Positions 16,297-41,557 of a stretch of DNA of 64,000 nucleotides are shown here, piece by piece (positions within the stretch are counted from its first letter, which is position 1; the number at the start of each line of letters is the position of its first letter). Position numbers and translations under genes: made by a program. Origin of the DNA: Deltaproteobacteria bacterium (lineage in GTDB: Bacteria; Desulfobacterota; Deferrimicrobia; Deferrimicrobiales; Deferrimicrobiaceae); contig JACRMU010000007.1 of the NCBI GenBank assembly GCA_016219515.1, positions 40 to 64,039 on the forward strand, read 5' to 3'. The notes beneath the pieces were generated by a model. The model was given only the letters and a program-made list of their open reading frames with translations, did not search any database and was not told where the DNA came from.

Positions 16297-17208
16297 GTGG
16301 AATATTCCCTGCCGATACGCGTGCGATGGGACGTCGACTTCCAGGGGCGGTCCGGCCGCGCGAAGCGGATCGCCCGCCAGATCCGGGAGGCGTCCCCGTT
16401 GCATGTCGAGCTCCGGATCGAGGGAGGAAAGGGGATTTCCGAGCTTCCTGCGATCTTTGCCGAAATCCACAAGTGCAGCCCGCGGATCGAGACCACTGTG
16501 CCCCTCTCCCCGGCAGCCGTCGCGGTTGCGCGGAGGGGATATCCCCAAATGGATTTCCTCTGGGAGGTGAGCGCCCGCGAGCCGTTCCGAAGGCTCCTCC
16601 CCTCGGGGGCGGATGCGATCTCCTTCGTTCCCGACGAGGAGAACCTGGCGTACCTTCCCGACGTTTTGGAGGAGTTCGCGGACAGCGAAACACGGACGCT
16701 GCACCTGCCGAACGTCAACGCCGTCCGCGCGCTTGCATTGAAGGGGCACGTCCCCATCCCCATGCCCGACCGGCTCCGCGAGGCGGGGCACAGGATATCG
16801 GCGCTTCGGATCCGCCTGGAGGGCAAGAAGCTGGTCGCGCACGATTATTTCCTCTGGAGGATCCTGCGGGGCGCGTTCCCGGACGAAGTGGCGGGAAGGG
16901 TCGAGTTTTCCGGATGCCAGGCGGCCTCCGCGCTTGCGCATGTCGACTGGGAAGGGAACGTCTACCCCTGCGATTCCCTCCCCATCCGCCTGGGGAACCT
17001 CCAGGAGGCGACGTTCGAAAAGATCTGGAACGCCCCGGCGAGATCGCGGATCCACGAGGCGATCCGCTCCGTGCCGACCTCCTGCAAGCCGTGCGAACAG
17101 AGGGAGGGTTGCCTTTCCGGTTGCCGGGGGCATGCGTACGCCGCCTCCGGCACGATGGACGCTCCCGACCCCTCCTGCCCGGAGAAGCCCGTCCCCGCGT
17201 CGAAGTAA
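16297..17208 (+). CDS. SPASM-domain protein lacking the canonical radical-SAM CX3CX2C motif (pseudo-rSAM-like maturase or partner)
   Basis: C-terminal ...SGCQAASALAHVDWEGNVYPCDSLPIRLGNLQEATFEKIWNAPARSRIHEAIRSVPTSCKPCEQREGCLSGCRGHAY... is a textbook SPASM/twitch region. The N-terminal 200 aa has a single Cys and no CxxxCxxC. Confidence 0.6.
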   Translation: MEYSLPIRVRWDVDFQGRSGRAKRIARQIREASPLHVELRIEGGKGISELPAIFAEIHKCSPRIETTVPLSPAAVAVARRGYPQMDFLWEVSAREPFRRLLPSGADAISFVPDEENLAYLPDVLEEFADSETRTLHLPNVNAVRALALKGHVPIPMPDRLREAGHRISALRIRLEGKKLVAHDYFLWRILRGAFPDEVAGRVEFSGCQAASALAHVDWEGNVYPCDSLPIRLGNLQEATFEKIWNAPARSRIHEAIRSVPTSCKPCEQREGCLSGCRGHAYAASGTMDAPDPSCPEKPVPASK

Positions 17209-19251: not shown

Positions 19252-22200
19252 TTGCGCAGATTCGCCATCTGGGCGGTGTTCCTGGCCGTCGCCGGGGGGT
19301 GGCTCCTGTTTTCCTCCAGCGGACAGGCCGGGATCGGGGTCGTCGGAAGTCCCCACGATTTTTCCACCACGACGCCGGGGCCCTGGACCCGGGACAATTC
19401 CGCATACACCTCGGGGGGGATCGCCCCCTCGGGCGTCTGTTCCGCCTGCCATGTGCCGCATTCCGCGAAATACGCCCCCCTGTGGCCGAGGGACCTTTCC
19501 ACCTACGACAACGCGCTCCTGCTGGATGGAAGCGGCGGGGCGACCGGGAAGCCGAATTACCGGAGGCCGATGACCAATCAGTGCTTCGACTGCCATGACT
19601 ACCACCAGACGACCACGGAACGGATCGACGACCTGCCGAACTTCTCGAAGTTCTCCAGCGTGAGCTCCGGCCACAAGCCGCAGAACATCGCGTTCGGTTA
19701 CACCACACCCACGACCGGAAAGGACCTGAACTCCACGATGAAGGAGGACATCCCGGCGGGATCGGTGTCCGGGTATTATGAAAACACCCCGCCCTACCAG
19801 ACCCAGCCCACGAGAAATTACGGCGCGACCGACAACGTCCGCCGACCCCTCGACAACACCACCTTGAGCCGGACCGGAGGCCATTACTTCAAGTCGGGGG
19901 ACCCCAACGCGAGCGGCGGGATCTATAAGGGGGACAAGCTGCCGTGCAGCGACTGCCACGAGCCGCACATGTGGGACGGCAACGGCGCCTGGCAGGCGTT
20001 CATCCGGAGGAGCTGGCCCTCCGGGAGCACGGTCGCCACCCGCCTTCAATCCTGGACGGGGCGGGCGAGCACCTACATGGCGAACGCGCCGACCCCGACC
20101 GGCGCGACCCGCAGCGACCTCGACAGCAGAACGATCTGCGAAGCGTGCCACGGGTCGGCGGACAGCGGCAATCCGCCGGTCACCTACCCCCAGATCAACG
20201 ACTCCACGTCCCCGAACCCGTATACGAACAATCAGCAGATCGTCGCCGCGCCGTCGACGGTTTCGGAACACTTCAACTCGAGGTCGCAGGCGGCCTGCGT
20301 TTCCTGCCACAACCACAACAACATCGGCGCGAGCTGCTCCCAGTGCCACGGCTTTCCGCCGAGTTCCACCGCTACCATCAAGTACCCGACGAACTTCACG
20401 CGCGTGCCCAATCCGGACAACGACGCGGACACCTCGACGCGGGACTCCCACGCCATGCATTACGGGGCGAAATCGGGGGAGACCCGGAATGCCGCCGCCG
20501 GGTATGTCTATGCCTTCGATTGCAGCACCTGCCATTACGGCTCGGCGCTCGGGACCGATTCGGCCATGGGGCACCATCAGGACAACCTGGTCTCGGTTGT
20601 CATCCAGGGGATCTATACGAAAGCGCCGAACGGCCCGGCCGGAGCGTACGACAACACGAACTATTACAACCAGGGCCCGGGGTTCCCGTTCCCGCCTACT
20701 CGGACGGGCCTGCTGGACAATACGAACGTTTCGCCCAACGGATGGGGGGCCGGGTCCCGCTACGGCGGCAACACCTGCCGCAATGTCTACTGCCACAGCG
20801 CGGGTCGGGCGCTCGCATCGATGACGCTGAACAACGACAACGACTTCCGGTCCCCCGTGTGGGACAACGGCCCCAGGCGCTGCAACGACTGCCACGGAAA
20901 AGGGACGGACAACACCGCCGTCAACTGGGGAATGCCCAGCTATGCGAACGGGGGAGCCGGACTCGACAACGCGAACTCCCATTCCGAACACGTGGTCGAC
21001 AACAGGATCGAGTGCTCCGTGTGCCATGCGGGGACGGTCACGGGCACGGGGGCGAGCCGCGCCATCGTGAGCACGGTGCCGACCCTGCACGTGAACCGGG
21101 TGCGCAACGTGCAGTTCGGCGGGGGGGCGACGGGCACCTACGACAACGCGACGAAACGGTGCAGCGTCGCCAGCTGCCACGGAGCCGGCAATCCCCAATG
21201 GGGCGGCACACTGGTCGGCTGCAGGGCGTGCCATTTGTCGAACAGCCCGGACACCGATTTCTACCTGAGCGGGACCGACAACCTCTATTCCGGCTCGGCG
21301 GTGACCAACATCGACAACACGGAATGGACATGGTCGGGGCATGGCCGGCCCACCGCGTCGGGGGCCTACGAGAAGAGCGGCTACCCCGCCGCGAACTTCG
21401 ACGGGGCCGCCGGCTCCGGCGACTCCTGCTACTATTGCCATAATTACTATGTGGCGCACGACAACTCCGTGAATCCGTTCCGGCTCAAGGACCAGACGGG
21501 GGCCGCCTCCTACCTGGCGACGCTGGGCTGGAACGCGACCTGCATGGTCTGCCATTTCCACTCGTCGACGCCGACGGCGAACCAGCCCCCGGGGTACCGG
21601 CCCGACAACACGTACACGCTGGTGAGGGCCGCATCCTCCTTCGTGGACAACGCGCATTACGGCACGAAGCATACTTCGACCAACGGCGGGAAGTTCTGCT
21701 GGGACTGCCACGATCCCCACGGCGACCGGACCCAGACCAACGGGAACAACATCTTCATGATCCACGGCGGTTCCGCGTCCCGCGGCGGGACCGCGGTCGG
21801 CTCGCTCCTGCGCCAGAGCGACAATGTTTTCGGCATCCGGGGATCCGCGGGCCAGCTCACGACCAACTACCCGGTCTTCACCGACAACGCTTCCGGCGGC
21901 AATTACGTCGACAACAACACGCCGAAACGGGGGGTCTGCCAGGTCTGCCACACGCAGCCGACGACCGGACACTACCGGTCGGACTATTACGACGGCCACA
22001 ATCTAACGGCGCGCTGCACCTCGTGCCATCCCCACAACGCGGGGTTCGCTCCCAGCGGGGGGAGAAACATCGAGCAGTTCATGGACAACGTGACGGGCAG
22101 CCCGTCGACGAACTACGAGGACCGCTCGCGGCACCCGCTGACCCTTTCGGGAAAGACGTACCCCGCGGAGGTGAACTGCCTGGGCTGCCACGGGGTCTCC

Positions 22201-23076
22201 GGCACCACGAGCGTTTCCAACGAGTGCCAGACGTGCCACTACGAATACCGCGCTGCGGACAACACGGCGCATCCGAACTCCGTGATGGCGTGGGCGACCC
22301 CGGCCGCGCCTGCGACGCTTTATGCCGCGTACCCCTCGGGCTCGATCAAGGACACGTCGCAGGGGGATGTCTGGTGCCTGCTGTGCCACGGGGTATCGAG
22401 CGGCCCGCAGCTGAACGGCCGCACGCCGCCGAACGTTCTCTCCGGCGGGCAGGTCTGGAGCGGGAGCGGCGCCTCGGGGCACGGGGCGGCTGCAAGCCTG
22501 TCGGGGGGGACTGCGGGGCCGCCGGCGTACCATTGCGGCGACTGCCACTACTCGACGGCGACCCGGACGGGCAGCTCGGAATCGCGGGACCAGCTGGCGG
22601 GAGGGTTCCACGGGAGCGTGAACCGGAAGCTGGTCCGGAACGACAACGCCTCGATCCAGGAATATCCGCACCCGGCGTCGGCAGACACGCGGTACGACAA
22701 CACGGACGAGCGTTCGACGCAGATGGATTCCTGGTGTGCGACCCAGTGCCACAGGAATTCGACCGACGGCATCCCCAGGAACGACAACGTGGTGGCCCAC
22801 ACCTGGTCGATGAAGGCCGGCGGGGTCCGTTCCGGGACCTTGAGCCACCCGACGAACATGGCGCCCGTGCCCGACGCCGCGCGGTTCCGGAACCCGCCGG
22901 CGCTTCCGCTGTCGGAGTACCTGGGGGGCGGGGCATCGCTGCCGGGTTCCGGGAACGAGGTCTGCGTCACCTGCCACGAACCGCACGCGGCAAGCAACAC
23001 GCAGTCGGACAAGCAGATGCTGCGGATGGAGTGGAACGACAACAACTCCACGCTGTGCAAGCAGTGCCACCTATGA
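19252..23076 (+). CDS. Giant multiheme c-type cytochrome (about 21 CxxCH plus 3 atypical CX3-4CH; 1274 aa)
   Basis: Signal peptide. CxxCH sites include CSACH, CFDCH, CSDCH, CEACH, CVSCH, CSQCH, CSTCH, CNDCH, CSVCH, CRACH, CYYCH, CMVCH, CWDCH, CQVCH, CTSCH, CLGCH, CQTCH, CLLCH, CGDCH, CVTCH and CKQCH. Atypical sites are CRNVYCH, CSVASCH and CATQCH. TTG start per the ORF track. Confidence 0.9.
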   Translation: MRRFAIWAVFLAVAGGWLLFSSSGQAGIGVVGSPHDFSTTTPGPWTRDNSAYTSGGIAPSGVCSACHVPHSAKYAPLWPRDLSTYDNALLLDGSGGATGKPNYRRPMTNQCFDCHDYHQTTTERIDDLPNFSKFSSVSSGHKPQNIAFGYTTPTTGKDLNSTMKEDIPAGSVSGYYENTPPYQTQPTRNYGATDNVRRPLDNTTLSRTGGHYFKSGDPNASGGIYKGDKLPCSDCHEPHMWDGNGAWQAFIRRSWPSGSTVATRLQSWTGRASTYMANAPTPTGATRSDLDSRTICEACHGSADSGNPPVTYPQINDSTSPNPYTNNQQIVAAPSTVSEHFNSRSQAACVSCHNHNNIGASCSQCHGFPPSSTATIKYPTNFTRVPNPDNDADTSTRDSHAMHYGAKSGETRNAAAGYVYAFDCSTCHYGSALGTDSAMGHHQDNLVSVVIQGIYTKAPNGPAGAYDNTNYYNQGPGFPFPPTRTGLLDNTNVSPNGWGAGSRYGGNTCRNVYCHSAGRALASMTLNNDNDFRSPVWDNGPRRCNDCHGKGTDNTAVNWGMPSYANGGAGLDNANSHSEHVVDNRIECSVCHAGTVTGTGASRAIVSTVPTLHVNRVRNVQFGGGATGTYDNATKRCSVASCHGAGNPQWGGTLVGCRACHLSNSPDTDFYLSGTDNLYSGSAVTNIDNTEWTWSGHGRPTASGAYEKSGYPAANFDGAAGSGDSCYYCHNYYVAHDNSVNPFRLKDQTGAASYLATLGWNATCMVCHFHSSTPTANQPPGYRPDNTYTLVRAASSFVDNAHYGTKHTSTNGGKFCWDCHDPHGDRTQTNGNNIFMIHGGSASRGGTAVGSLLRQSDNVFGIRGSAGQLTTNYPVFTDNASGGNYVDNNTPKRGVCQVCHTQPTTGHYRSDYYDGHNLTARCTSCHPHNAGFAPSGGRNIEQFMDNVTGSPSTNYEDRSRHPLTLSGKTYPAEVNCLGCHGVSGTTSVSNECQTCHYEYRAADNTAHPNSVMAWATPAAPATLYAAYPSGSIKDTSQGDVWCLLCHGVSSGPQLNGRTPPNVLSGGQVWSGSGASGHGAAASLSGGTAGPPAYHCGDCHYSTATRTGSSESRDQLAGGFHGSVNRKLVRNDNASIQEYPHPASADTRYDNTDERSTQMDSWCATQCHRNSTDGIPRNDNVVAHTWSMKAGGVRSGTLSHPTNMAPVPDAARFRNPPALPLSEYLGGGASLPGSGNEVCVTCHEPHAASNTQSDKQMLRMEWNDNNSTLCKQCHL

Positions 23077-24002
23077 GGCGGATTGCCGTCGTCTGCGCGG
23101 CCCTTTGCCTGTCGATCGCCGCGGAATCCCGCGGCGCAGCGGTGGAGGTTCAGGCGTTTTTCGGGAAGGAGGCCCTTCCGTTCAGTTGGGTTTCGGGGGT
23201 GTTCCGCGACGGGAACGACGTTTGGGTCGGCACGAAGAACGGTACGAGGATCTACAGCCTGGCCGGAAAGGCATGGAGAACGCCGCCGCCGGGTTTCACG
23301 GGGAACGCCGTGACGGGCCTTGCACGGTTCGGAGGGTCCCTGTACGTGGCGACCGAGGCGGGGCTGAACATCGGCGGCCCGGCCGGCTGGAAAGCCATGA
23401 ACCGCATCGCGAACGCCGTGGCGTCCGACGGAGACCTGGCCGCTTCGGAAAACACGTTGTGGATGGCCGCCCGCACGATGACCGGGGGACTCCTTCAGTT
23501 CGACGGATCCGGCTGGAAACTCCTTTCCCGGGGGGAAGGAACGGGGGTGATGAGCAACATTACCCGCCTTTCCGTCCGGAACGGGGAGCTGTGGGCCGGG
23601 ACCACGAACAACGGGATTTACCTTTTGAAATCGGGAAAATGGACGGTCATCGGCCCGGAGGACGGACTTCCCGGACTCTGGATCACCTCGCTTGCGGGAA
23701 CCGGCGACGGGATGTACGCGGGTTCTCCCGACGGCCTGGGGTTTTACGACGGGAGCCGGTGGAGGGTCTACCGCGTGGCGGACGGCCTCCCCAGCAACAA
23801 AGTGAGCGCGCTCAAAGTATATGAAAACAGGGTCGTTATCGGGACGTTCGACCGGGGGATTTCGATCTTCGACGGGAGGCGCTTCCGGAACATCGGGCGC
23901 GCGGAAGGGCTCTCCGACGACCGCGTGGAATCGATCGAGGTCGTCGGGGACGAGATCTGGGTGGGCACGATCAACGGGCTGTCGCTCGTCCGCATCCCCT
24001 GA
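23073..24002 (+). CDS. Secreted beta-propeller protein with two-component-regulator-propeller (Reg_prop)-like repeats
   Basis: ATG overlaps the cytochrome stop (ATGA). Signal peptide. Six repeats of the type ...WVGTKNGTRIYS..., ...LWAGTTNNGIYLLKSGKW..., ...IWVGTINGLSLV... Confidence 0.7.
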   Translation: MRRIAVVCAALCLSIAAESRGAAVEVQAFFGKEALPFSWVSGVFRDGNDVWVGTKNGTRIYSLAGKAWRTPPPGFTGNAVTGLARFGGSLYVATEAGLNIGGPAGWKAMNRIANAVASDGDLAASENTLWMAARTMTGGLLQFDGSGWKLLSRGEGTGVMSNITRLSVRNGELWAGTTNNGIYLLKSGKWTVIGPEDGLPGLWITSLAGTGDGMYAGSPDGLGFYDGSRWRVYRVADGLPSNKVSALKVYENRVVIGTFDRGISIFDGRRFRNIGRAEGLSDDRVESIEVVGDEIWVGTINGLSLVRIP

Positions 24003-24045
24003 AGCGGTTCCGGGGACGAGCGGCACGGGCGAGGGAGGAAAGAGC

Positions 24046-27000
24046 GTGGCGTACCGTCCGAGGCGCTTGAGCCGGTCCTGGTTCTTCGCCCTTGCCGTGG
24101 GGATCCTGCTCGCGGCGTGGAGCGCGGGGCTGGCGGACCACTCGAAGATGGACCCCAACGCCAGCTGCTATGCGTGCCACACCCTCAAGACGTCCGAGCT
24201 CCTGTCGGCGACCAAGAGCATCCGCACTTCCAAGCCGAAGATGACCAAGCTCGCGGACAACACGACGTGGACGGCGGGGATGCCTCTTTCGTGCGATTTC
24301 TGCCACCAGTCGGCGACCGACGTCCCTTCGCTGGTAAAGAGCACGAAAACCTCGCGCCACCCCGTGGACACGATCGGGAACGAGACGGACCCGACCCGGG
24401 AGATTTCCTGCAACGACTGCCACAACGCCTACTGGGATGCGACGGTCCCCGCCAACGACAACCACGAGGTGACCCCCAAGACGCTCCTGACGCAGGACAA
24501 CACGGACGGCTACCCGGACCACAAGGGGCTGGGATCGGACAACCAGTACGCGCACAACCTGCGTTCGAACCCTCCCCATCTGTCGAAGGGATACACCGGG
24601 AACATGAGTTTTTCCTCGACGACCCCCCGGATTTCCGACGGGACGTTCTGGTCGTCGTCGCTCGACGGAAGCAACCTGGTCTGCTTCGTCTGCCACGGGG
24701 GGTCGTCGTATCAGCCCCCGTTCCGCGGCGCGTCGGGGCGGTCGCAATACAACGTGATGTCGGATTACTCGGCGTCGGGTACGGCGGCGGGGCACAAGAT
24801 CAACGCGAACTTCGGCTCCAGCGGGGCCCTGGCGCAGGGCTCGAAGCTTCCGTGCTACGACTGCCACGCTTCCCATGGGAGCGCGAGCCGGCGCCTGATC
24901 CTGGACGGATATTTCGCGAGCGACAACGGGATGCGGAACATCGAGGGGACGTCGAGCCTCGCGGTGAACACGTTCACGAGCAGTTCCCCCGGCGCGACGG
25001 GAGACATCGCGGTGTGCGCGGGATGCCACAACACGGGGCTTGCGGCGACGGCGTTCAGCGCGACGGGGAAGGTGGAGAAGCTCAACCCGATGGACCCGTT
25101 CGTGAGCAGGGCGACCAGCCATACGGTGGTCGGGTCGTGGTCCTCGCCGTCGGCGACGAGGGGATGCCTGGGAACGTTTTCGGGTTGCCACGCCAGCCCG
25201 CACAATCCGATCGGGGAGAGCCTGGGAGGCCTTGGCTGCTCGACCTGCCACTCGACGATCTACACGGCGATGCAATCGTCCACGGGGTACCACCACGCGA
25301 TTCTTTCGGACAACGCGACGGCCCCGTACCCGACGAACGCGACTCCGGGCTCCGCGCCTGCGGACCGCACGTGCCGGATCTGCCACGTGGACCACGATTT
25401 CTTCAGCACCCAGACGGGCTCGAACCACCTCCGCGCGCGGAACCTGCGGCAGAGCATCTCGGTGCAGCCCAACGACAACATCTCCGCGGCGAGGCCCCTG
25501 AACACGGACTACGACAACACGCTCGGGGGGGTGTGCACCTCCTGCCACGCCAACGTGCAGACCAAGAGCGCGACGAACCTCCGGTCGGACAACGTGTGGC
25601 AGACCTCCGTGGTCAGCCAGGCGCTGTACGGGGTCGGCGCGCACAACTATGCGGTCACCTCTCCCTACATCAAGAGCCATTTCTCGTCCGACAACTCGGA
25701 CGCGACGAGCATCTTCCAGGCGAACTGCACGAAATGCCACAACGACACGATGCAGAAGAACTTCCAGGACAACAACGTTTCGTATCCGAACCAGTTCGGC
25801 CTGCACGACTCCGGGGCGGGAGGCGGCAGCGTCGTCGACAAGCTGCTGGGCCCGCTGGGGGCGACGAGCGTCGCTGAGGTCGCTGGGGAGAACTTCTGCT
25901 ACCGCTGCCACAGCCACAGCACGGACACGCTGCTGAACGGCCCCTCCAAGACGCAGGACGGGTACGACTGGTACGGCGGCAGCGTCAAGGCGATGACGCA
26001 GGCGTCGGAGAGCGTCTTCGGGGACTTCCAGAAGACCTCGCGGCACCCGGTCAAGACGGCGGACCAGAAAAGCGGGACCGCGGTGGTGTCCTGCGGGAAC
26101 TGCCACAACGCGCATGTCGTCGGCAGGACCGCGGACAACGCGGCGGTATCGAATCCCGACAATACCTATGCGATCGCCGTGTACACCACCATGGCGGGGC
26201 GGCTCAACTTCTGCCTGGCGTGCCACGACGGGAATCCCCCGGACAACACGGTGTCGGCGACCCGGTTCGTCCCCGCCCGCGTGCGGGTGGACAACGCCGT
26301 CATGAACAAGTCCACGTACGCGGCCAGGTCGCACTGGACCAGCGGCCAGGGTCAGATGTTCCTGTCCCTGGTGTGCACGAATTGCCATGACCGGCACGGC
26401 GGTTCGTTCGGAAAGCTTTTGGACAACGGCGTGAAATACCACCGCGGGCCGCAGTGGACCCCCCCCGCGTGCAATACCTGCCACGGATTCACCTCCCCTT
26501 CGGCGCCCACGGGGAACAACAACACGGAATGCTTCCGCTGCCACACGTACCAGGGGACCGGATACCCGGCGATCGAATCGGACCGGACGGCGGGGGACAA
26601 CGGCTACTTCGCCGCGCCGGGGACATCCGTGCGGTTCTCTCTCCGGTATGCCGGGAAGGCGGTGTACGAGGGGGCCTACTCGCCCCACAACAACACCGTG
26701 AAGACCTTTTCCGGGTTCGACAACGTGTCGCGCACGGTGAGCGACTGCAGGAATTGCCACGACGTCCACGGGACGGCGAACCCGTACGCGCAGCTCAAGG
26801 GGACGTACCGCTCGGGGAATTACGGGCTCTGCTTCCAGTGCCACGGGAAGACCGCGACCGCCACGGACAACATCTCCCGGTACTACCCGACGGCGGCCGG
26901 CGGCGACAACACGGACAGCGCGAGCGCGACGAACGCGGGCCACAACATCAAGACGGCGGGGGGGTACCTGGCGCAGTACACCTCGCTGCCGTGCTACGAC

Positions 27001-28680
27001 TGCCACGTGACGCACGGAAGCAAGAACTCGAACACGCAGCTCAAGAGCGACCAGACGGAGCGCGGCTGGAGCGGCCTGGGCGACACCAAGTACGGGAGCA
27101 CGCCTTCGGACAACGCGGCGGACAACAACAGCCGGAGGTTCTGTTTCGGGTGCCACGTGGCGTCGGACGGTTCCGGCACGGCGACGGTGGAGAACCTGTC
27201 GCAGGCGGGCGCGAACCGCCTGAAGCTGCCTTCGACCTACGGGATCGAGGAGCACAAGGGGGCGAGCGCGCAGGGGTGCCACCGGTGCCACTACGGGAAG
27301 AACTACAACGACAACACGTACGGCCCGCACTACCCGGCGACCGGGTTGTGCGACACGTGCCACGAGAGCCAGGGGACGAAGTCCGCGGGAGTGCCGACGT
27401 ACAACGGGGCGCACCTGAGGCACGTGGACAACACGACGTACCGGTTCGCCTGCAAGGAGTGCCACAGCTGGACGAAGGGATCGGGCCAGGCGGTGCACAA
27501 GAACGACAACACCGCCTCCGCGATCCACGCGGAGGTGGCGTTCGACAACCAGGGCTCCTCGTCGTGGGACAACATCCTGTACGCGGTGTCCACGACGTAC
27601 AAGTACCGCTCGCTGTACGCGAACCCCTATGGCGCAAGCGTGGCGTCCCCCGCGTACTCGGGAGGCACGGACAACGGAACGGACGGAAAGCAGGCGCTCC
27701 TGAAATGGCGGAACGGCAACTGCAGCAACGTCTGGTGCCACAGCACGGCGTACGCGGACAACGTGGCGAGGACCGTCGCGTGGCAGTCGGGCGTGCTCCC
27801 TTCCGGCTGCACCGGCTGCCACGGCGGCGGGAAGGCGGTCGCCGCCGCGAGCCGGATGGGGGCGTCCAACAACGGTTCTCCGGCGCACCTCGCGCACATC
27901 GACTCGAACCTCAGGTGCTACAAGTGCCATTACGGGACGATCACCGACAACACGCAGGACACGGTGATCAACGTCTACGACAACCATGTCAACGGCGTGA
28001 AAAACGTGCGCTTCCCGTCCGAGGTCGGCGGGACGTGGGACAACACGAACAAGACCTGCTCGGCGACTTACTGCCACGGCACGCCGGCGACGCTGCCCAA
28101 GTGGGACAACCTGTCGACGGTTTCCGGCTGCGGCGTGTGCCACCAGAACCAGGGGGCGGGGGCGACCGGGAGCTACGCGGGCCCGCACCATCCCCACACG
28201 ATCAGCAGCAAGCTCCGGATCGCCTGCGAGACGTGCCACGCGGTGAACGCGGCCGCGCATTCCAACACGATCCACGCGGGCGGCCCCGACAACGCGGCGT
28301 CGGGGAAGACGGCGGAAGTCCTGTACACCGATAACGCGCAAGGCCGGACGTACTCCGGCGTCGCGTTCCTGGCGAAGAACCTTTGGGTCAATCCGTTCGA
28401 CAACAACGCGGCGCTCACGCCCGTCTATGCGGGAGGTGCCTCCTCCGTGGGCAACGACGCCGTCAACGCCGCCATCCACTGGACGCAGGGGACCTGCAGC
28501 CAGGTGTGGTGCCACTCCAACGCGAAGCCCCTGGGCTGGAAGGGGGTGGCGGGGAACAACGCCTTCCGCTCCCCGCCGTGGACCTTTACCGCCTGCAATT
28601 ACTGCCACAATCCCCGTCCCACGGACGTGAACTGCACTCCGTGCCACCGCGGCGTCGGGACCGCCGCCGCCATGGCGGGC
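24046..28680 (+). CDS. Giant multiheme c-type cytochrome, N-terminal segment (about 29 CxxCH plus atypical sites); continues in another frame
   Basis: GTG at 24046 preceded by GGGAGGAAAGAGC (SD). Signal-like N-terminus with a dense run of CxxCH. The reading frame stays open to 28986, but the sequence after about 28680 is R/S/T-rich nonsense while the +2 frame carries on the cytochrome motifs, implying a frameshift near 28660-28690. Confidence 0.75.
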
Positions 28681-28681
28681 G

Positions 28682-31600
28682 TTCCGGGACGGGACACGAC
28701 AACCACGTGGACGGGATCAAGACGGTCAAGTTCGGCACGACGCTGCGGACGACGGGAATCAACCAGCAGGCGACCGGCACATACGACAATGCCGCGTACC
28801 GCTGCTACAACACGTATTGCCACAGCAACGACACCGACAACGCCGCCTTCAACACGGCGGCGCAGCAGCCGGAGGACAACACGATCTCGTGGAACTCGGC
28901 TGCGGGCGGCACCTGCCGCACGTGCCACAAGTACACCGCGGCGTCCGGCAACCCGATGGTCAGCAACGCGCACGACAACCACGTGAACAACTACGCCCGG
29001 CTCGGGAAGTACATCGCATGTTATCAGTGTCACTCCGGAACGGTGGACGCCACGGACAACGTTCCGTCGACCCGGAGCTACCTCGACAACCATGTCAACG
29101 GCATCAAGAACGTCTATTTCGGCGCGGGCGTCGGCGCGTATGACAACACCCGGACGTGCCGGAACACCTATTGCCACCAGCAGGGGAACGCGCTGCTGTC
29201 TTCATTAACGCCGGGAGACAACCTGACTCCGGCGTGGACCGACAACTGGGCGTCGCTCTCCACGATCTGCAAGGGATGTCACGGCAGCCAGACGGGGACC
29301 GGTTACAGCAACCCTTCGTACTACGGGGAGCCGAATTACGACAATAATATCGGCAGTTCCGGGGCGCGGAACAGCCACTATGTGCATGTCAACTTGATGG
29401 CCGAGGGGGTGAACTGCCTGAAATGCCACCCGGATGTCGTCACGGCAGGGAACGCCATCGACAACGCGAGTGCGGCGATGCACATGAACGACAACGTGGA
29501 AGTGGCCCCGGGGCTGGGAGAGACGTTCGTCTGGGACCAGGCAACCAAGAGCTGCACGAATATCGTTTGCCACCAGGGAAACTCGACCCCGGTCTATTGG
29601 GGAGGGCCCGTCATCCCTTGTACCGCGTGCCACTCGTTTTCCCCCGTGGGGGAGGCGGCCCCGGCCCGTGTCTCCGGCCCGGCGCCCTCGCAGGGTCCCA
29701 GTCTGGCGTCGTCGCGCGGCGCCAGGTCGGCGACGACGCCGGCGATCGGCCCTGCGGCGTCCACGCTTTCCGTTCCTGCGCCGTCACAGGTTTCCGCTCC
29801 GATCCCGCCCCGGCTTCCGAAGTCCGGACGGCATATCAAGCCCATCGCCAGGATCCGGATCGCCGGCGGCTGGGACAACACGGGCCACGGGCGGACGATG
29901 GGGCACTACGTTTCCGGAAATCCTCCGGCCAACGCGTCGAGCCGTTTCTCCGCCTGCACCAACTACTGCCACTCCAACAACCCCATGTTGACTCCCCACA
30001 CGGACAACGCCGCCGGGCGCAACTTCTTCCGGCTCGCGACGGGCGGGGGGGGCGTCGCCCGGGCGGCGATCGACTGCACCACCGCCAACAACATCTGCAA
30101 CCAGTGCCACGCACTCGGTGGAGCGCTTGCGGCGCAGGCGACGCGGCAGGTCGGGGCGGCGCACTACGGGGCGAAGCACTCCTCGCCGGGAAACAACGGG
30201 GGTTACTTCTGCTGGGATTGTCACGATCCGCACGGGGGGGGGAGCGACTTCATGATCCGGGAGCGCGTGGCGGCGAGGACCGACAGGGGGGCGAACGGCG
30301 CAGGCCTCGGAATTCCGATCGTGACCCGGGCGACGTCGTTCACCGGCTCGGGGACCTACACGTGGAGTTCCTACGTAAAGGCGACCTTCGACGGCCTCTG
30401 CCAGGTCTGCCACTCCGCCGGGACGGGGATCCGGCATTTCCACAACTCGGCGGGCGGGTACGACAACGTTCATAATCCCGGAATCCGGTGCACGACGTGC
30501 CACACCCACAAACTGTCGGTGCCGGTCATCGGTTCCGTTGCCGACGATACGTTCAAGGTGCCCGGGATTTCAGGGAAGCTGGTGGCGGGAGACAAGGTCA
30601 CCGCGGTCCTGGTCGCGGTGCCGGGGGGGAAGGCCTCCTTCGACATGGGGAAGGTCAAGGGGATCCCGATGGCGGAAGTCCCCGCGAGCCCCGGCGGGCC
30701 GGGCATTCCGGCCGTCGACAACGGGACTTACCGGGGGACCTACACGATCCGGCCCGGGGATGACTACATCGAAGGGCGCATCGTCGGGCAGTTCGTGTCC
30801 TCCGACAACGTCGCAGCCGTGCCGCTGGCCTCGGCCTCCAAGTGGACGATCGACACGCAGCCGCGCGTGGCCTACGCCATCGACAAGACGGACCTTCCGG
30901 CCGACTCGGCGAGCAAGGCGAGAGTACGCCTTGTCGTCAAGGACGCCAACGGGAACGTCCTCAAGGGGAGGCGCTTCAAGCTGACGCTGGCGACGACCGA
31001 CGAATACACGGGCCTGGTGGGCGCCGGAAACTTCGGCAAGGACGTGGGGGCGACCGTCGAGGCCCTCTGGCAGGGGCAGACGGACGCCTGGGGGACGGTG
31101 GAATTCGACTACAAGGCGGGGTTCGCGGCGAAGACGGTGATCCTTGCCGCCAAGGACCTCGAATCGGGCGGAGTCGCGGTGGATTACATCACCTCCTACA
31201 AGGAGGCCTCCATCGACATTGCGCTGACCCCGCCCCGCAGCCTTGCCGCCGCGCGCCGCGGGCTGCAGTACATCATCAAGATCGAGGCGACCCGGACGGT
31301 GCTCACGGCCGACGGCCAGAGCCGGTCGGTGATCCGGGCGACGGTGACGGACCCCGGCGGGAAAGCGGTCGCGGGCGACAACGTCGTGTTCACGCTGTCG
31401 AGCCCGAACGGGTCGATACGGACGATCGAAGGGGTCACGAACGCTTCCGGGGTGGCGACGGCGGAGTACATCGCGGGGAAGAAGATCGGGATCGTCGTCG
31501 TCACCGCGACCGATATCCTGAGGAACGTCTCCGCAAGCGTCAGCATCGTCCTCCTGTCGGATGCCCCGGCGAAGATCTATCTCAAGGCGAGGCCCGAGAG

Positions 31601-32159
31601 CCTTCCGGCGGACGGGTTCAGCCGGTCGGACATCCAGGTGAAGGTGACCGACATCAACGACAACCCGAACGACAACACGAAGGTGGAGTTCCGGCTCGCG
31701 AAGGGGACGGGCAAGCTGGATTCCCAGGAGCGGGTGACGGACCGCTTCGGCGAAGCGCTGAACCGGTTTACCGCCGGGACCGTGCCGGGGATCGCGACCG
31801 TCCTTGCGACCGTGCGCTCGAAAGTCCCCACGTTGGCGGAGCTGGCCAAGGCGCAGAACGTCCTCTTCGTCCCGTATTCGGACCAGGGAGAGGAGATCCG
31901 GGTATCCCGATGGCTGAAGAAAAAGGGGGATACCGCCTTGAAGGGGGAGGCCGTCGTGGAGTACACGATCGGCCGGGGCGACACGGTCTACACGCTCAAT
32001 GCGCCGTACGATTGCCGGATCGACTTCCAGTACGTGGAATACTGGGACCGCGCCCAGACCGGCGACACGCTGGCCCAGATCACGCCGGTCGTCATCCCGG
32101 GATCCGCCGGCACGCTGCCGGCGTCGATCCCGGCGAGCCTTTCCCCAAGGAGAAGGTAA
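28682..32159 (+). CDS. Giant multiheme c-type cytochrome, C-terminal segment (about 9 CxxCH plus about 5 CX3-4CH, a P/S/A-rich linker, and tandem bacterial Ig-like domains)
   Basis: Begins ...GHDNHVDGIKTVKFG..., which repeats a motif found upstream (DNHVNGVKNVRF). CRTCH, CYQCH, CKGCH, CLKCH, CTACH, CNQCH, CWDCH, CQVCH and CTTCH. The C-terminal ~550 aa show Big_1/invasin-like repeats (...ADGFSRSDIQVKVTDINDNPNDNTKVEFRL...). Confidence 0.7.
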
Positions 32160-32362: not shown

Positions 32363-35300
32363 ATGACCGGACGGAAAGCTTGGCGTCTATGGATTTGTCT
32401 GCTCACGATCCTGGTCGCGTCCCGGGCGGAAGCCCTCCCCCCCCCACGGCCCGGCCTCGTGGACCCGCATACGCTGCGGTACCGGACCACGGGCCATAAG
32501 GTCCCCGTGCTCCCGAAAGCGGTCCGGGAGCATCGAATTTCTCCCCAAAAGGGGAAGTACCCGCTCGCCGCCGGTTTCTTCGCTGCGACAAGGTCCCTCG
32601 TGGCGGGGACAACGTCCGGCGTGAGGCCCCGCGCGATCCCGACGCCCGCCTCCGGCGCCCTCCGCCCGCTGATCGTGCTGGTCGACTTCGCGGACAAGCC
32701 GCACGATGACGCCGCGCACCCGGCCTCGGCGTACACTCCGCTCTTCTTCGGGAGCGGAGCGAGTGACCTGAGCGTCGCCAACTACTGGAATGAAGTGTCG
32801 TACGGGACGTTCACGCTCACCACGCTGTACAACCCCGACAGCACCTCGGTCGACATCGTCGGGTGGATCCGGCCGGCGGCATCCCCGGCCCTCTCCGGGG
32901 AATTCCGCTCGACGATCGTCTCCTACGCGCAGATCACGGACTCCGTCACGGGCGTCAACCTGACGAACCTGCGCACGCTGGTCACCGACATCGTCGCATA
33001 CCTCGACGGCGCGCCGAACAACCTGGATTTCGCACCGTACGCGGACCCCGCCACGGGGATCGTCCAGTCGCTGATCCTGGTGCACGCGGGGGCAGGGCAG
33101 GAGGACACGGGGAATACCGCGGACCTCTTTTCCCATAGCGCGTCCCTTGCATCTCCGGCCGGGACGAACGATACGGACGCCGGCGGCCATCAGGTCACGG
33201 TGGCCGACTACAGCGCCGTTCCGGAGCAGTTGAGCTTCGACCCCGCGACCGGCGCATCGACCCCCGTCCTCATCGGCGCGGGGGTGATCGCCCACGAAAT
33301 GGGCCACCTGTTCGGCCTTCCGGATCTCTACCCCACGTCCGGAACGTCCGGCCAGACCGGCGGCTACTCGGGAGTCGGCGTTTTCGACCTCATGGGCTAC
33401 GGGCTGTGGGGGAGCAACCTTCTCGCCCGGCCGGACAATCCCGCGCACCTTTCCGCGTGGTCCAAGTCGGACCTGGGGTGGGTCACCCCGACGGTCCTTT
33501 CCGCGACGTCTTCCAATACGCTCCTTCCGGCGGGGTCGACGGCGTCGGCCTACAAGGTGTACCCCAACGGGCCGGGGGACGAGTCGCAATATTTCCTTCT
33601 CGAGCTGAGGGGAAAAGACGGCCCCGGACTCTTCGACCGGTACCTGCCCGGGAACGGGGTGCTCGTCTGGCGCGTGGACTCCGAGCAGATGTCCGGTCAA
33701 CGGTCGGGCAACGCGGCGAACAACGATTCGAGCTTCCCCGCCCTTTCCGTGCAGGAAGCGGATCTCTCCGGCGCAAGCCCGTCGCCGCACCTGTTCCAGC
33801 CGTTCTCCATCGGCGCCGACGCGTTCGGCGCCGCGGGGGATTTCTTCTCCTCCTCGGGTCAGGTCTTCTCCCGGGTCCTGCCGGTGGACGGCCAGAACCT
33901 CACCAATTCCTCTCCGACGATCAACACCTCCTCCGTCAACCACCTCTTCGACGCCGGGTTCCTCGTCACCGTCCGGAATTTCGTCGTGACCATCGTCACC
34001 CGGATCGTGAACGCGGTCTTCGACCTGGCCGTCGAGCTTCCCTATTGGAAGGTCTACCGCTCCACGGATGCCCAGCCGACCCTGAACACCAACAAGACGC
34101 TTTCCTACGGCTTCGACGGTTCGAACCGGACCTGGGTGGGGACGACGGACCAGGGAATCTGGATTTTCGCCTTGACCACGTGGACCCAGATCAACTCGGC
34201 CCTTCTCCGGTCCTCCCGGATCCAGGCGATGGCCTATGAGCCCTCCACCGGCTCCATGTGGGTCGGAACCGATCAGACGGTGGCGAAGATCCGGCTCGAC
34301 CAGGTCCGGAGCGACGAAATCTTTCCCGCTTCCCCCTCCACCATCAACGTGAAGGGGATCCGGATCGCCCGCGACCTGACGAAATGGATCGGAGGGGGGC
34401 GACAGCTTGCGATCGTCACCGATGCCGGGAACAACCAGCCCAGCGGCCTTGCGTACACCGACCTGACTTTCAAGGTCCCCCTCCTGTCGGGCGAGCAGAT
34501 CACCTGCGTGGAGTTGGACAACGTCTTTTCGACGGACCAGACCAAGGACCTTCTGTACATCGGGACGTCCGTGGGGAACATCTACAGGAATTTCCGGGAG
34601 TCGGACAACGCCGTCTTGAGCCTCTACACCCTGTCCCTTCTTTCCTTCGAGAAGATGACCGCGCTGTCGCTGGCGGCCAATGCGCCGGGGGCCGTCAACG
34701 CGATGGCCATCGACAAGACGGGGCTGCTCTGGGTCGCGACCGACCGGGGAGTCTTCGCGTTCGACCGCGGGGACCCTTCGTCTTCCGACCCGGGCATCCG
34801 CTCCGACCGGTACAACCCCTTCGACCTTGCCGGGGACAACTCGGTGACCTCGCTCGTCTACTTCCCTCCCTCGTTCAGCGGGACGGGGGCCCACGGGTCG
34901 GCCGGGTTCATCGAGCCGACCGGCATCGCCTTCCAGGACACGGGACAGGCGCGAAACATCGTCTGGGTGTCCTACGGAGATACCGTCGGCTCCACGGAGT
35001 CGGCTTCCGGGGGCGCGGGGCGGATCGACCCCAACGTCCTCCTGAACACCCGGATCCCCAAGGACAACGCCGCCGGCATCAATGCCGTCGATTCGGCGCG
35101 GATCGGCCATGCGACGATGACGTTCACGAGGAACGCTTCCAGCCCGGAAAAGGGGCCGGCCGTCAACGATCTCATCGCCGCCGCGGGGGACGGCTCCTCC
35201 AACCTGTGGTTCGGGACGAAGAATTCCGGCGCCGTCCGTTTCGGTTCGGGGGCCTCGCTGACCCTCGACAAGACGGTCTACATCAACGATTCCGCCGCCG

Positions 35301-35938
35301 CCGGCGTGACGCTGGTCGACGAAAACGCCGTTACGACCTCCCTGGAGGTGACGGTCACCGGTTCGTCGGACGGGACCGGGTTTTCCATGACGCTTCCCAG
35401 GGGGACGGACAACGTCTACCGCGGCACGTTCGGCTTTTCGACGTCGGCCACCGACAACACGAGGTCGCCCAAGGTAATCCTGGTGAAGAACGGGGATACC
35501 GTGACCGTCAGCTACCGGGACATCAATCCGCCCTCCACCAAGTCCGCTTCCGCCACGTGGAGGAGCGTCTTCCCCTTCCACGACAGCCTGTTCATCGGAG
35601 GATGTTTCCTCTCGACGGCGGCATACGGCTCGGCGATGGCGCCCGAGGTGCAGACGCTCCGGCGTTTCCGGGATGCCTGGCTCCTCCGGGCCCCGGGAGG
35701 GGAAGCGCTCGTGTCCGCGTATTACCGGGTGAGCCCCCCTCTCGCGGCGTTCATCGCCGGGCGGCCGCTTCTGCGGCTTGCGGCAAGGGTGTTCCTCGCC
35801 CCCGCGGTCCTTCTGGCGAATGTCGCCGTGGGCGCGTGCCTTGCGGAGAAAATCGCCTCGTTGCTGATCGTCCTGCTCCTCCCGGGGTTCCTTTTTCTCT
35901 TTCCTCGGCGAACCATCGGACGGGCCGGCCGCCGTTGA
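32363..35938 (+). CDS. M6-family (immune inhibitor A-like) metalloprotease-domain protein with beta-propeller repeats and a conserved C-terminal sorting-like tail
   Basis: Signal peptide. VIAHEMGHLFGLPDLY (HExxHxxGxxDxY, diagnostic of M6/InhA). Later Reg_prop-like repeats (WVGTTDQGIWIF, LLYIGTSVGNIY, LWVATDRGVFAF). C-terminal CFLSTAAYGS...LRRFRD...YYRVSPP... followed by a hydrophobic stretch ending ...PRRTIGRAGRR. Confidence 0.8.
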   Translation: MTGRKAWRLWICLLTILVASRAEALPPPRPGLVDPHTLRYRTTGHKVPVLPKAVREHRISPQKGKYPLAAGFFAATRSLVAGTTSGVRPRAIPTPASGALRPLIVLVDFADKPHDDAAHPASAYTPLFFGSGASDLSVANYWNEVSYGTFTLTTLYNPDSTSVDIVGWIRPAASPALSGEFRSTIVSYAQITDSVTGVNLTNLRTLVTDIVAYLDGAPNNLDFAPYADPATGIVQSLILVHAGAGQEDTGNTADLFSHSASLASPAGTNDTDAGGHQVTVADYSAVPEQLSFDPATGASTPVLIGAGVIAHEMGHLFGLPDLYPTSGTSGQTGGYSGVGVFDLMGYGLWGSNLLARPDNPAHLSAWSKSDLGWVTPTVLSATSSNTLLPAGSTASAYKVYPNGPGDESQYFLLELRGKDGPGLFDRYLPGNGVLVWRVDSEQMSGQRSGNAANNDSSFPALSVQEADLSGASPSPHLFQPFSIGADAFGAAGDFFSSSGQVFSRVLPVDGQNLTNSSPTINTSSVNHLFDAGFLVTVRNFVVTIVTRIVNAVFDLAVELPYWKVYRSTDAQPTLNTNKTLSYGFDGSNRTWVGTTDQGIWIFALTTWTQINSALLRSSRIQAMAYEPSTGSMWVGTDQTVAKIRLDQVRSDEIFPASPSTINVKGIRIARDLTKWIGGGRQLAIVTDAGNNQPSGLAYTDLTFKVPLLSGEQITCVELDNVFSTDQTKDLLYIGTSVGNIYRNFRESDNAVLSLYTLSLLSFEKMTALSLAANAPGAVNAMAIDKTGLLWVATDRGVFAFDRGDPSSSDPGIRSDRYNPFDLAGDNSVTSLVYFPPSFSGTGAHGSAGFIEPTGIAFQDTGQARNIVWVSYGDTVGSTESASGGAGRIDPNVLLNTRIPKDNAAGINAVDSARIGHATMTFTRNASSPEKGPAVNDLIAAAGDGSSNLWFGTKNSGAVRFGSGASLTLDKTVYINDSAAAGVTLVDENAVTTSLEVTVTGSSDGTGFSMTLPRGTDNVYRGTFGFSTSATDNTRSPKVILVKNGDTVTVSYRDINPPSTKSASATWRSVFPFHDSLFIGGCFLSTAAYGSAMAPEVQTLRRFRDAWLLRAPGGEALVSAYYRVSPPLAAFIAGRPLLRLAARVFLAPAVLLANVAVGACLAEKIASLLIVLLLPGFLFLFPRRTIGRAGRR

Positions 35939-37719
35939 TGCGCGGATCCGGATATATCTTATGGATGGTTGCGGCCGCGGTCCTTATGCTGCTGGAAGGC
36001 TCCGCGCGGGGGGCGGGATTGATCAGCGGGAGCTACGAGTTGACCGTCGATGAAACCGTCGACAAGACGGCGAGCGGAACGACCCGGGCCGTCCGGTCGA
36101 AAAACACGCTGGACCTGCGGTACAAGGGATTTCTCGCCCCCGTCATACAGAACGAGCTGACCTTCAAGGTGGAGCAGTTCCGCGATTCGACGGGACCCGA
36201 CACGGTGAAGATCTTCCCGGGGATCTCCCTGGGCTACAAGGGATCGTACTGGAACGCCGGCGCGAAAAGGACGATCGAGGATTCGAACGAGGTCGGGAAG
36301 ACCGCTTCCATCACCGACAGCTACTTCATGGAGGTGTTCCTCGTGCCGCCGAGGAGACTTCCGGACTTCAAGGGGAAGTACACGCTGGAGACGAACTTCC
36401 AGGAGGGATCCACCGATACGCGGAAGACCTCCTGGAACCTGTCGTCCAACTACCGTCCATACGATTGGCTCGACGTGAAGGGGGATTACTCCCGGAACCT
36501 GAACGACGACCGGCTGAAGGCCGACTCGGACACGGAAGAGGAAAGAATCAGCGGAACGGGAGGCATTCGACACTTCATCTCCAACAAGATCAAACTTGAT
36601 ATACAGTACAAGGTGGAAAAGAATACCGGGGCGACTCTCCTGGATGCGGGAGGAGCGAAAAACCAGAAAGAGGAAGAGACGCAGACGGTAAAGAACCTGA
36701 TTGCCTTCCGCCCCTTCAGGGACACGAACGTCGACGCATCCTTCGACGGCGAGCTGAAGGAGAACCACGTGAGCGGGGAGCATAACCTGACCGGCAACTT
36801 CAAGGTTTCCGCCGGGCAGAAGATCGGACAACCGTACGACCTCAAGGCGGATTTCGGGCGGAACATCACGGAAGCGCGTCATACCGCGGACGACAACAAG
36901 AAAACGGAAGACACGGTAACGGTGGATTGGAAGGCGAAATATTCGAGCTTGCTCGATTTTTCCGTGAAATACCTCAAGAAGGACATCGAAGAGGACCATC
37001 CGTTCGACCTGACGAAGAACACGTCGTCCGGGAACGAGGAGTGGACCGCTTCCTGGGTGTCCCAGATCCTGCCCACGTTGAACGCGTCGTTTTCCTACGA
37101 CAAGAACGATACCTTTTCCCGGGGGGCCAAGTCCGCCGTCGACACCCGGTACAACCTGAAAGCCAACGTCGCCCTGAGGGACATCAACCTGACGCTCGAT
37201 CCTTCCTACGAAATCGCATTCAAAAACGACCTGGTGACGATGGTGAAGAGCGAAACGCGGGACTTCCGCGTCGCGCTGACCTACAAGCCGATCGAAACGA
37301 ACAACATCAACTCCCTCCTGTCCCATACGTACGCCCGCAAGGAGGATTCCCTGGCGAACAACATCAACCGGACGGACAGCACGTCGGGAAACGTCACGTG
37401 GAAGGACCCCCTTCCCGGATGGATGATGGGATTCGACATCACCCGGCAGGCGACCGACACGAGCAACGACGATCTCCCGCCGGACATCACCACCAATTTC
37501 GGCGTGAAGGCCTCCTACAAGTACCGGCGGCTGGCGTTCGACACGTCCTACAAGTACGACAAGAAGAAGATCTCCGACGACAGCGAAAGCTTCGACGTGA
37601 AGGTGGGCTGGACGGCGCCCTCCTGGGACGCCAGTCTCACCTACGCCTTCAAGAGGACGTTCTCCGTGGCTCCGAACGAGGGACAAAGCATCGGTTTCGC
37701 TTTCCGATACGTTTTTTAA
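35938..37719 (+). CDS. Putative outer-membrane beta-barrel protein
   Basis: Signal peptide and alternating amphipathic beta-strand pattern throughout. Terminal ...FAFRYVF with C-terminal Phe. ATG overlaps the upstream stop. Confidence 0.55.
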   Translation: MRGSGYILWMVAAAVLMLLEGSARGAGLISGSYELTVDETVDKTASGTTRAVRSKNTLDLRYKGFLAPVIQNELTFKVEQFRDSTGPDTVKIFPGISLGYKGSYWNAGAKRTIEDSNEVGKTASITDSYFMEVFLVPPRRLPDFKGKYTLETNFQEGSTDTRKTSWNLSSNYRPYDWLDVKGDYSRNLNDDRLKADSDTEEERISGTGGIRHFISNKIKLDIQYKVEKNTGATLLDAGGAKNQKEEETQTVKNLIAFRPFRDTNVDASFDGELKENHVSGEHNLTGNFKVSAGQKIGQPYDLKADFGRNITEARHTADDNKKTEDTVTVDWKAKYSSLLDFSVKYLKKDIEEDHPFDLTKNTSSGNEEWTASWVSQILPTLNASFSYDKNDTFSRGAKSAVDTRYNLKANVALRDINLTLDPSYEIAFKNDLVTMVKSETRDFRVALTYKPIETNNINSLLSHTYARKEDSLANNINRTDSTSGNVTWKDPLPGWMMGFDITRQATDTSNDDLPPDITTNFGVKASYKYRRLAFDTSYKYDKKKISDDSESFDVKVGWTAPSWDASLTYAFKRTFSVAPNEGQSIGFAFRYVF

Positions 37720-40969: not shown

Positions 40970-41557
40970 ATGCGCGTTCCTGCGACGACTCCGCTTCTTT
41001 CCGTGATGTTTTTCTGCTGCATGGCGTTCGTGGCGGGAACGGCGCTGGCCGAGGAAAAGGCGATGACTCCCCTTGCGGGGGGGATCCCCATGATCGAGGG
41101 GATCAAGATGCTGGAGGTGGGGACCGCCGCGCCCGATTTCAGCGTCAAGGACTCCGATGGGAAGCCGTTCCGCCTCTCGGAGGAGAAGGGGAAGAAGGCG
41201 TTCCTCCTCGTGTTCTGGTCGATCTTCTGCGAACCGTGCCGGGCCGAAATGCCGGTCATCCAGAAGATGCACGAGAAGTACCGGGAAAGCGGTCTGAACG
41301 TCGTCACGATCGCCCTCGACGGCGAGCCGCTGGTCGGCAGCATCGCCGGGTTCATCCGCCAGGAGGGGTACACCTTCCGGGTGTTGATCGACGAGCTGGA
41401 TTCCCAGGAGATGTTCAAAGTGGCCGATCCCTACGGCGTGGCGGGGACCCCGACCCTCTTTCTCCTGGACCGCGCGGGGAAGGTGGCCCTCGCCAGGGCG
41501 GGCCGGCTGACGGATGAGGAGCTGGAAAAGGCCATCCAGGCGGTTCTGAAAAAGTGA
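40970..41557 (+). CDS. TlpA-family thiol:disulfide oxidoreductase
   Basis: Signal peptide. FWSIFCEPCRAEMP. Confidence 0.8.
   Translation: MRVPATTPLLSVMFFCCMAFVAGTALAEEKAMTPLAGGIPMIEGIKMLEVGTAAPDFSVKDSDGKPFRLSEEKGKKAFLLVFWSIFCEPCRAEMPVIQKMHEKYRESGLNVVTIALDGEPLVGSIAGFIRQEGYTFRVLIDELDSQEMFKVADPYGVAGTPTLFLLDRAGKVALARAGRLTDEELEKAIQAVLKK

Follow-up and report, generated by a model that had tools for sequence, protein, structure and literature searches.

Here we describe two neighbouring genes, A and B, for giant multihaem cytochromes in a 64-kb stretch (64,000 nucleotides, the window) of the 71.7-kb contig JACRMU010000007.1 from a Deltaproteobacteria bacterium. Besides the ordinary CXXCH haem motifs, both proteins carry repeated cysteine pairs with the longer spacing CX4CH. 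The CX4CH module of A and B is the known, curated CxxxxCH/CxxCH domain (TIGR01904 in NCBIfam, PF09698 in Pfam). We suggest, with a probability of about 80%, that the CX4CH sites are haem c attachment sites of this domain and that they are matured without a motif-specific lyase.

The family assignment follows from both collections of models. TIGR01904 ('CxxxxCH/CxxCH domain c-type cytochrome') matches A and the two parts in which B is present in this assembly with 55.9, 60.2 and 83.7 bits at a cut-off of 27, and PF09698 (GSu_C4xC__C2xCH) matches them with 31, 21.7 and 29 bits at a cut-off of 21.7. When the eight CX4CH sites are cut out and compared with TIGR01904 singly, seven reach 36.5-49.2 bits and the eighth 26.1. 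All eight are followed by a CXXCH motif within 12-30 residues. The 3′ half of B is already named 'CxxxxCH/CxxCH domain-containing protein' in GenBank (MBI5341860.1). An earlier note on this DNA, made from the sequence alone, had described the haem-binding spacing as non-canonical and had named membership of a known domain as what would speak against its reading; the matches to both families and the GenBank name identify the motif as just such a domain. TIGR01904 and PF09698 were first defined on multihaem cytochromes of Geobacter sulfurreducens and are about twenty years old. The single CX3CH sites of A and of B, which the same note counted as part of the module, have to be set apart from it, since neither matches TIGR01904.

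The recurrence of CX4CH is far beyond chance, and every example quoted earlier is located in A or B. In 2000 residue shuffles per protein, the two CX4CH motifs of A (shuffle mean 0.08) were reached 3 times and the six of B (shuffle mean 0.11) never, while the one CX3CH motif in each protein is non-significant alone (139/2000 shuffles for A, 229/2000 for B). Protein A, which begins with a signal-like segment, has 21 CXXCH, 2 CX4CH and 1 CX3CH, making 24 C-Xn-CH motifs that take up all of its cysteines (48/48). Its orthologue in the locus L002 keeps all 24 position for position and with the same spacing. B, with its frames joined, has 38 CXXCH, 6 CX4CH, 1 CX3CH and one CX6CH motif, and 90 of its 94 cysteines are in such pairs; the intact orthologue has one CXXCH more. 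As for haem sites, B would have 46 in its intact form and has 45 as assembled here. The segment DNHVNG[IV]KNV, said to stand often before the motif, is clean before three of the eight CX4CH sites and degenerate before two more.

Alignment of the repeats shows a unit of about 100-140 residues with three haem motifs, CX4CH being the third. Its layout is CXXCH, about 20 residues, (A/S)HxxH, 6-20 residues, CXXCH, about 20 residues, H(V)N(G), 20-70 residues and (T/S)-C-x-N-x-(Y/W)-C-H. Units occur in two subtypes, a short one and a long one with an insert of about 45 residues before CX4CH. Across 31 units and 55 longer segments the columns C7, C10, H11, H33, C43, C46, H47, C90, C95 and H96 are invariant, and H36 and H66 are near-invariant, being present in at least 90% of the units. 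Each unit therefore has three cysteine pairs with their proximal histidines and three further conserved histidines, the count expected for three bis-histidine (bis-His) haems, as in the class III cytochromes c7 and c3. A hidden Markov model (HMM) of five short units was run on 168 related giant proteins, each of which represents a cluster at 50% identity. In these it recognised 936 full-length units, with the spacing 2-2-4 in 875 (93%) and 2-2-3 in 38; in a smaller set of 139 homologous units the spacing 2-2-2 occurs in 3. The earlier claim that CX4CH is conserved as a repeated unit is supported. As the homologous third site has X4, X3 or X2, it presents itself as a haem site with a variable loop, usually of four residues. 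The CX4CH sites of A and B, described earlier as haem-binding, very probably do bind haem.

The unit is also widespread. A profile of the 31 units, compared with 1.84 billion representative proteins, matches 4249 of them (each representing a cluster) if E<=1e-3 is required and 1029 if the limit is set at E<=1e-30; the largest number of matched stretches in a single protein, which has 5264 residues, is 59. Matches to A in genomes, mostly to the part that contains the module (residues 507-998), come from Geobacter, Geotalea, Geothermobacter, Desulfuromonas, Trichloromonas and Desulfobulbia, as well as from Anaeromyxobacter, other Myxococcales and Nitrospirae/Thermodesulfovibrionia; the nearest species representative is a metagenome-assembled genome (MAG) from a deep mine, with 84% identity. 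Cultured carriers include Geobacter sp. OR-1, Geotalea toluenoxydans and Geothermobacter hydrogeniphilus. A taxonomic survey with an HMM of the repeat had been proposed earlier; the domain is common in metal-respiring bacteria.

If the units are re-framed as HxxH-CXXCH-H-CX4CH-CXXCH, their alignment to Pfam Cytochrome_C7 spans positions 3-67 of the 67, with E-values from 7e-5 to 2.5e-3; against Cytochrom_CIII single units give E-values of 0.02-0.04. The whole proteins pass the Pfam Cytochrome_C7 / Cytochrom_CIII models with 56-101 bits. We note that this is a resemblance of the re-framed units to class III cytochromes, at the level of sequence, and not proof of membership.

Gene B requires separate consideration, as it is interrupted. 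It is present here as two overlapping open reading frames (ORFs), 23821-28986 and 28383-32159, and GC content at third codon positions (GC3) shows that near 28680 the coding frame switches, with frame 0 giving way to frame 2. DNA alignment with two orthologous contigs shows that 124 nt of the orthologues are missing from the window between 28681 and 28682. The missing stretch encodes 'ADNLSNAHITHAATDRYYFSCDECHAWTVPNDSHGNSGLGIIA', including one CXXCH, and the six junction bases CGTTCC match neither orthologue flank. The gap may have arisen in the assembly or may be genuine; a genuine deletion would leave a truncated cytochrome of about 1540 residues. Both intact orthologues are single proteins, P0001 (2744 residues, 95% identical) and P0002 (2751 residues, 82%); what the earlier note calls the larger cytochrome is not a single ORF in the assembled sequence. 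The orthologues begin with 'MAYR...' and 'MAER...', and the start of B is GTG 24046, not ATG 23821. The ORF 23821-28986 was rejected as the true extent of B: the first 75 codons are read-through from upstream of the start, and the last ~100 are out of frame. A second frameshift was considered at the Pro/Ser/Ala-rich stretch after CTACH (~29640-29900) and was also rejected, as this stretch is conserved in both intact orthologues.

Two other sites in B deserve mention. The CX3CH motif CTNYCH lies in a segment (29850-30000) of the form 'W..(S/T)GHG ... C..CH ... FRL', whose counterpart in A (~21330-21450) has an ordinary CYYCH when the translations are compared by eye. This suggests a one-residue change of the loop at a homologous, presumably haem-binding, site. 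The CX6CH pair CLGTFSGCH (25165-25191) is kept in both P0001 and P0002; it may represent one more haem site of an unusual type, or it may bind no haem. Positions of all the features are collected in Table 1.

Table 1. Genes, repeat arrays and motif sites of the window (positions count from its first nucleotide)
Feature	Position	Strand	Evidence and remarks
Gene A: secreted 24-haem cytochrome, 1274 aa	19252..23076	+	Motif map, Pfam and NCBIfam matches
Tandem pair of three-haem units in A (long and short subtype), both with CX4CH at the end; next CXXCH included	20317..21249	+	TIGR01904 37.2 and 42.8 bits, cut-off 27
CX4CH site CRNVYCH, A aa 509-515	20776..20796	+	CQNIYCH in L002 orthologue
CX4CH site CSVASCH, A aa 637-643	21160..21180	+	Motif map; kept in L002 orthologue
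CX3CH site CATQCH, A aa 1162-1167	22735..22752	+	No TIGR01904 match; conserved in L002 orthologue
Beta-propeller gene (Reg_prop repeats), 309 aa, between A and B	23073..24002	+	Translation, Pfam match; conserved in L001, L002
Gene B 5′ part, GTG 24046 to deletion junction	24046..28681	+	GGAGG Shine-Dalgarno upstream
Tandem array in B: six three-haem units	27331..29642	+	TIGR01904 26.1-49.2 bits per site; fourth unit truncated by the deletion
CX4CH site CSNVWCH (B)	27721..27741	+	Motif map, TIGR01904
CX4CH site CSATYCH (B)	28057..28077	+	Motif map, TIGR01904
CX4CH site CSQVWCH (B)	28495..28515	+	26.1 bits, just below TIGR01904 cut-off 27
Junction: 124-nt out-of-frame deletion; frame shifted, one CXXCH (CDECH) lost	28681..28682	+	DNA alignment, protein comparison, GC3 switch
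Gene B 3′ part, shifted frame: three more units, further haems, C-terminal Big_1/invasin immunoglobulin (Ig)-like domains	28682..32159	+	GenBank MBI5341860.1
CX4CH site CYNTYCH (B)	28803..28823	+	Motif map, TIGR01904
CX4CH site CRNTYCH (B)	29157..29177	+	Motif map, TIGR01904
CX4CH site CTNIVCH (B)	29553..29573	+	Motif map, TIGR01904
CX3CH site CTNYCH (B)	29955..29972	+	No TIGR01904 match
M6-family metalloprotease-like protein, conserved neighbour	32363..35938	+	
Outer-membrane beta-barrel-like protein, 577 aa, conserved neighbour	35986..37719	+	C-terminus ...FAFRYVF; kept in L001, L002
TlpA-family periplasmic thiol:disulfide reductase, conserved neighbour	40970..41557	+	
TlpA-like redoxin fused to 10-haem cytochrome (CXXCH only)	41562..43109	+	

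We propose the following course of events. The units, two of them in A and six in B, stand head to tail inside giant cytochromes that would be exported by the Sec pathway. TlpA-like reductases would keep the cysteines of the apocytochromes reduced, and the haem would be attached by the general cytochrome c maturation (Ccm) system of the organism, presumably encoded outside the window, with no need for a motif-specific lyase. Desulfovibrio cytochrome c3, for comparison, is matured in Escherichia coli by the ordinary Ccm system. The closely packed haems might then form a continuous chain within one polypeptide, a single-chain 'wire', serving electron transfer from periplasm to surface or outside the cell. 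The gene cluster and the Big_1/invasin end of B would fit a surface or extracellular electron-transfer apparatus.

The proposal of maturation without a special enzyme has to be weighed against the possibility that the CX4CH haems depend on a specialised paralogue of a lyase (CcsBA or CcmF), encoded in addition elsewhere in the genome. Motif-specific lyases do exist, NrfI/NrfEFG for CXXCK and CcsA1 for CX15CH (Nrf and Mcc systems of Wolinella and E. coli), and this precedent favours such an enzyme. On the same analogy with NrfA and MccA the earlier note argued for a dedicated lyase, and it stated correctly that the window has no ccs/ccm lyase gene: neither Pfam scans of ~50 ORFs nor a six-frame scan for the WWD motif found CcsA, CcsB, CcmF or CcmC genes in the 64 kb. 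This absence is uninformative: near 81 related loci (~1.5 Mb) CcsA-type genes occur at roughly background density, with one within 10 kb of the cytochrome at a single locus. That locus is L023, from a Polyangiaceae MAG, where a CcsA-type gene (8950-9822, minus strand, PF01578, E 9e-41) lies directly upstream of a relative of A and speaks for a special lyase, as does the reach of the search, which extended to the window and the related loci rather than to the full genome. However, at 80 of the 81 loci no lyase is linked, and a dedicated lyase is therefore not supported. The analogy itself breaks down, as CX4CH keeps the CH end with the proximal histidine and its loop is only two residues longer than that of CXXCH. 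Switching between X4, X3 and X2 at a homologous site is hard to square with a spacing-specific enzyme. In addition, no dedicated lyase has been described for the CX4CH haems of cytochrome c3, with two CXXXXCH motifs and documented haem (PMC10454114), of MmcA, whose CXXXCH and CXXXXCH peptides carry the 615-Da haem adduct in mass spectrometry (PMC11024163), or of hydrazine dehydrogenase, where haem 3 is attached through CX4CH in the solved structure (PMC6469936). CX4CH is listed among the known haem motifs (PMC11492766), and both CX3CH and CX4CH are routinely included in the counts when multihaem cytochromes are surveyed (PMC10734462; PMC11492766). We thus consider a specialised lyase for these sites unlikely.

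The haem-binding role of the sites may be questioned as well. The CX4CH cysteines could form structural disulfides or bind another metal in an otherwise ordinary multihaem cytochrome, a possibility that the earlier note names too; a literature search on the domain names found no direct chemical evidence on this protein family, which leaves room for it. Yet a histidine always follows the second cysteine (C90, C95 and H96 are invariant), each unit has exactly one further conserved histidine per C-Xn-CH motif, the aligned position is taken in some homologues by CX3CH or by the canonical CXXCH, A has no spare cysteine, and CX4CH haem is proven in other proteins; this makes disulfides or another metal very improbable. 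We give still less credit to the idea that the recurrence is a by-product of recent internal duplication in Asn/Thr/Gly-rich low-complexity proteins, with the spacing unselected. The units of B are indeed tandem duplicates, and the composition is strongly biased. However, the units are only ~25-50% identical, yet ten Cys/His columns are invariant; the 2-2-4 spacing is held across several phyla in 168 proteins, which are not near-identical copies; and shuffles yield ~0.1 CX4CH per protein.

Several observations weigh against haem attachment at the known domain by the general machinery, or at least limit how far it can be carried. Searches of PDB sequences with profiles and with full-length proteins give no match to the unit, to A or to intact B; the matches obtained are at the level of motifs (reaction-centre cytochromes, c7-like domains, NrfA), none of them covering the CX4CH part, and two AlphaFold2 models of moderate confidence have no match in the PDB. 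Per unit, the Cytochrome_C7 scores are 18-23 bits, under the Pfam cut-off of 24.8. Profile alignment of the unit by hhalign gives a probability of 47% with PpcA and 6% with D. vulgaris c3; we do not use these values as evidence. A literature search on the domain names found no experiment on TIGR01904 proteins, only an incidental mention of the name, and the search of this genome for a maturation system and paralogues was confined to the window. Finally, the interruption of B in the assembly means that this organism may not produce it as a single protein.

Thus, the repeated CX4CH module of A and B is an ordinary and already known finding, and haem binding at CX4CH is textbook knowledge for cytochrome c3; the domain is annotated in the source record. 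It is a named domain and is essentially unstudied: a large family, with thousands of protein clusters and up to ~59 units per chain, for which we found no solved structure or biochemistry. Haem counts should take in the CX3-4CH sites, which brings A to 24 and intact B to 46. The recombinant unit is a reasonable target for studying single-polypeptide cytochrome wires in metal-respiring bacteria. One may also imagine that the 2-2-4 unit is a structurally uncharacterised building block of wires, in which the long-loop haem, with a conserved aromatic residue before the second cysteine, sets a particular geometry of haem packing, and that in System II bacteria a specialised CcsBA paralogue from elsewhere in the genome attaches this haem; we regard this combination as rather unlikely.

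The surroundings of A and B are conserved. The region has a guanine-cytosine (GC) content of ~65% and nearly all of its genes on the plus strand; over 20-32 kb the adenine-thymine (AT) skew is positive and the composition strongly biased. In the loci L001 and L002 the gene order is kept on both sides. Upstream of A it runs TlpA, TlpA, NosR/NapH-like iron-sulfur membrane protein, DUF362, PqqD and SPASM protein, and from A onward A, beta-propeller, B, M6 peptidase, outer-membrane barrel-like protein, lipoprotein, SurA-like chaperone, NHL propeller, TlpA and TlpA-decahaem fusion. The beta-propeller gene and the stop codon of A overlap by 4 nt; the ORF 23105-23824 is in another frame than the beta-propeller gene, and its translation is junk. 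The 577-residue barrel-like protein scores 25.7 bits with Porin_4, under the cut-off of 27, and its C-terminus is outer-membrane-protein-like. Its gene lies in a stretch of lower GC content (~58%; 35986-38813, plus strand) and is followed there by the gene for an LpoB-like lipoprotein of 355 residues, whose long tail is Lys/Glu-rich and resembles a coiled coil; downstream of B, L001 and L002 have kept both genes.

Five genes for TlpA/ResA-like periplasmic thioredoxins lie in the 64 kb (1426-2049, 2046-2552, 12362-13027 on the minus strand, 40970-41557 and 41562-43109), and they may serve the reduction of thiols for a very large load of apocytochrome. Just upstream of A (13191-17208, plus strand), the set of NosR/NapH-like iron-sulfur membrane protein, DUF362, PqqD and SPASM-domain protein, kept in L002, looks like a peptide-modifying set of the radical S-adenosylmethionine (SAM) type. 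Further upstream (336-11732, plus strand) are two more multihaem cytochrome genes, with 7 and 8 CXXCH, and then a polysaccharide cluster with a PEP-CTERM-associated deacetylase, a methyltransferase and several glycosyltransferases. The three other cytochrome genes of the window have CXXCH only.

Compared with known systems, A and B are closest to the TIGR01904 / PF09698 proteins themselves. They share with them a CX4CH followed by CXXCH ~20-35 residues on, the local consensus (T/S)CSN(V/T)YCH(S/G), several tandem copies per protein (2 in A, 6 in B) and a similar host range, and there is no essential difference. A and B are larger than the original Geobacter examples and come from an uncultured 'Deltaproteobacteria' groundwater-type MAG, and in B a Big_1/invasin Ig-like C-terminus is added. 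With the class III cytochromes c7 (PpcA family) and c3 (Desulfovibrio) the units have in common the signature HxxH-x6-9-CXXCH, ~30 residues per haem and one extra histidine per haem, which would allow bis-His ligation. Unlike them, the units have 100-140 residues instead of ~70, with a beta-rich insert before CX4CH, and are repeats inside a giant chain, not free-standing domains.

Methanosarcina MmcA and haem 3 of anammox hydrazine dehydrogenase have the same CX4CH spacing, and covalent haem is shown there; however, these families are unrelated and have a single site per protein, in contrast to the repeated module of A and B. NrfA (CXXCK) and MccA (CX15CH) are alike only in departing from CXXCH. 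In A and B the histidine is retained, the loop has 4 residues and homologous positions can also have X3 or X2, and no lyase gene of the NrfEFG/NrfI/CcsA1 type is linked, either in the window or at 80 of the 81 related loci. With regard to porin-cytochrome conduits of the Mtr/Pcc type, the cytochrome cluster here contains a gene whose 577-residue product, a putative outer-membrane barrel, has a Porin_4 score below the cut-off.

A further parallel is provided by the long single-chain, 'nanowire-like' cytochromes predicted in Desulfuromonadia, which were modelled with haems at both CXXCH and CXXXXCH; examples are GSU2884/OmcA, OmcH, OmcG and a 27-haem protein of G. metallireducens (PMC11492766). 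By description, A and B are similar to them in being giant and secreted, with tens of haems and both types of motif. The wire cytochromes are predicted to be extracellular and do not always stand beside a porin-cytochrome operon, and A and B may be likened to them in this respect too. What distinguishes A and B is their 24 and 46 sites and their cluster, which combines the M6 peptidase, the outer-membrane barrel, the TlpA genes and PqqD/SPASM.

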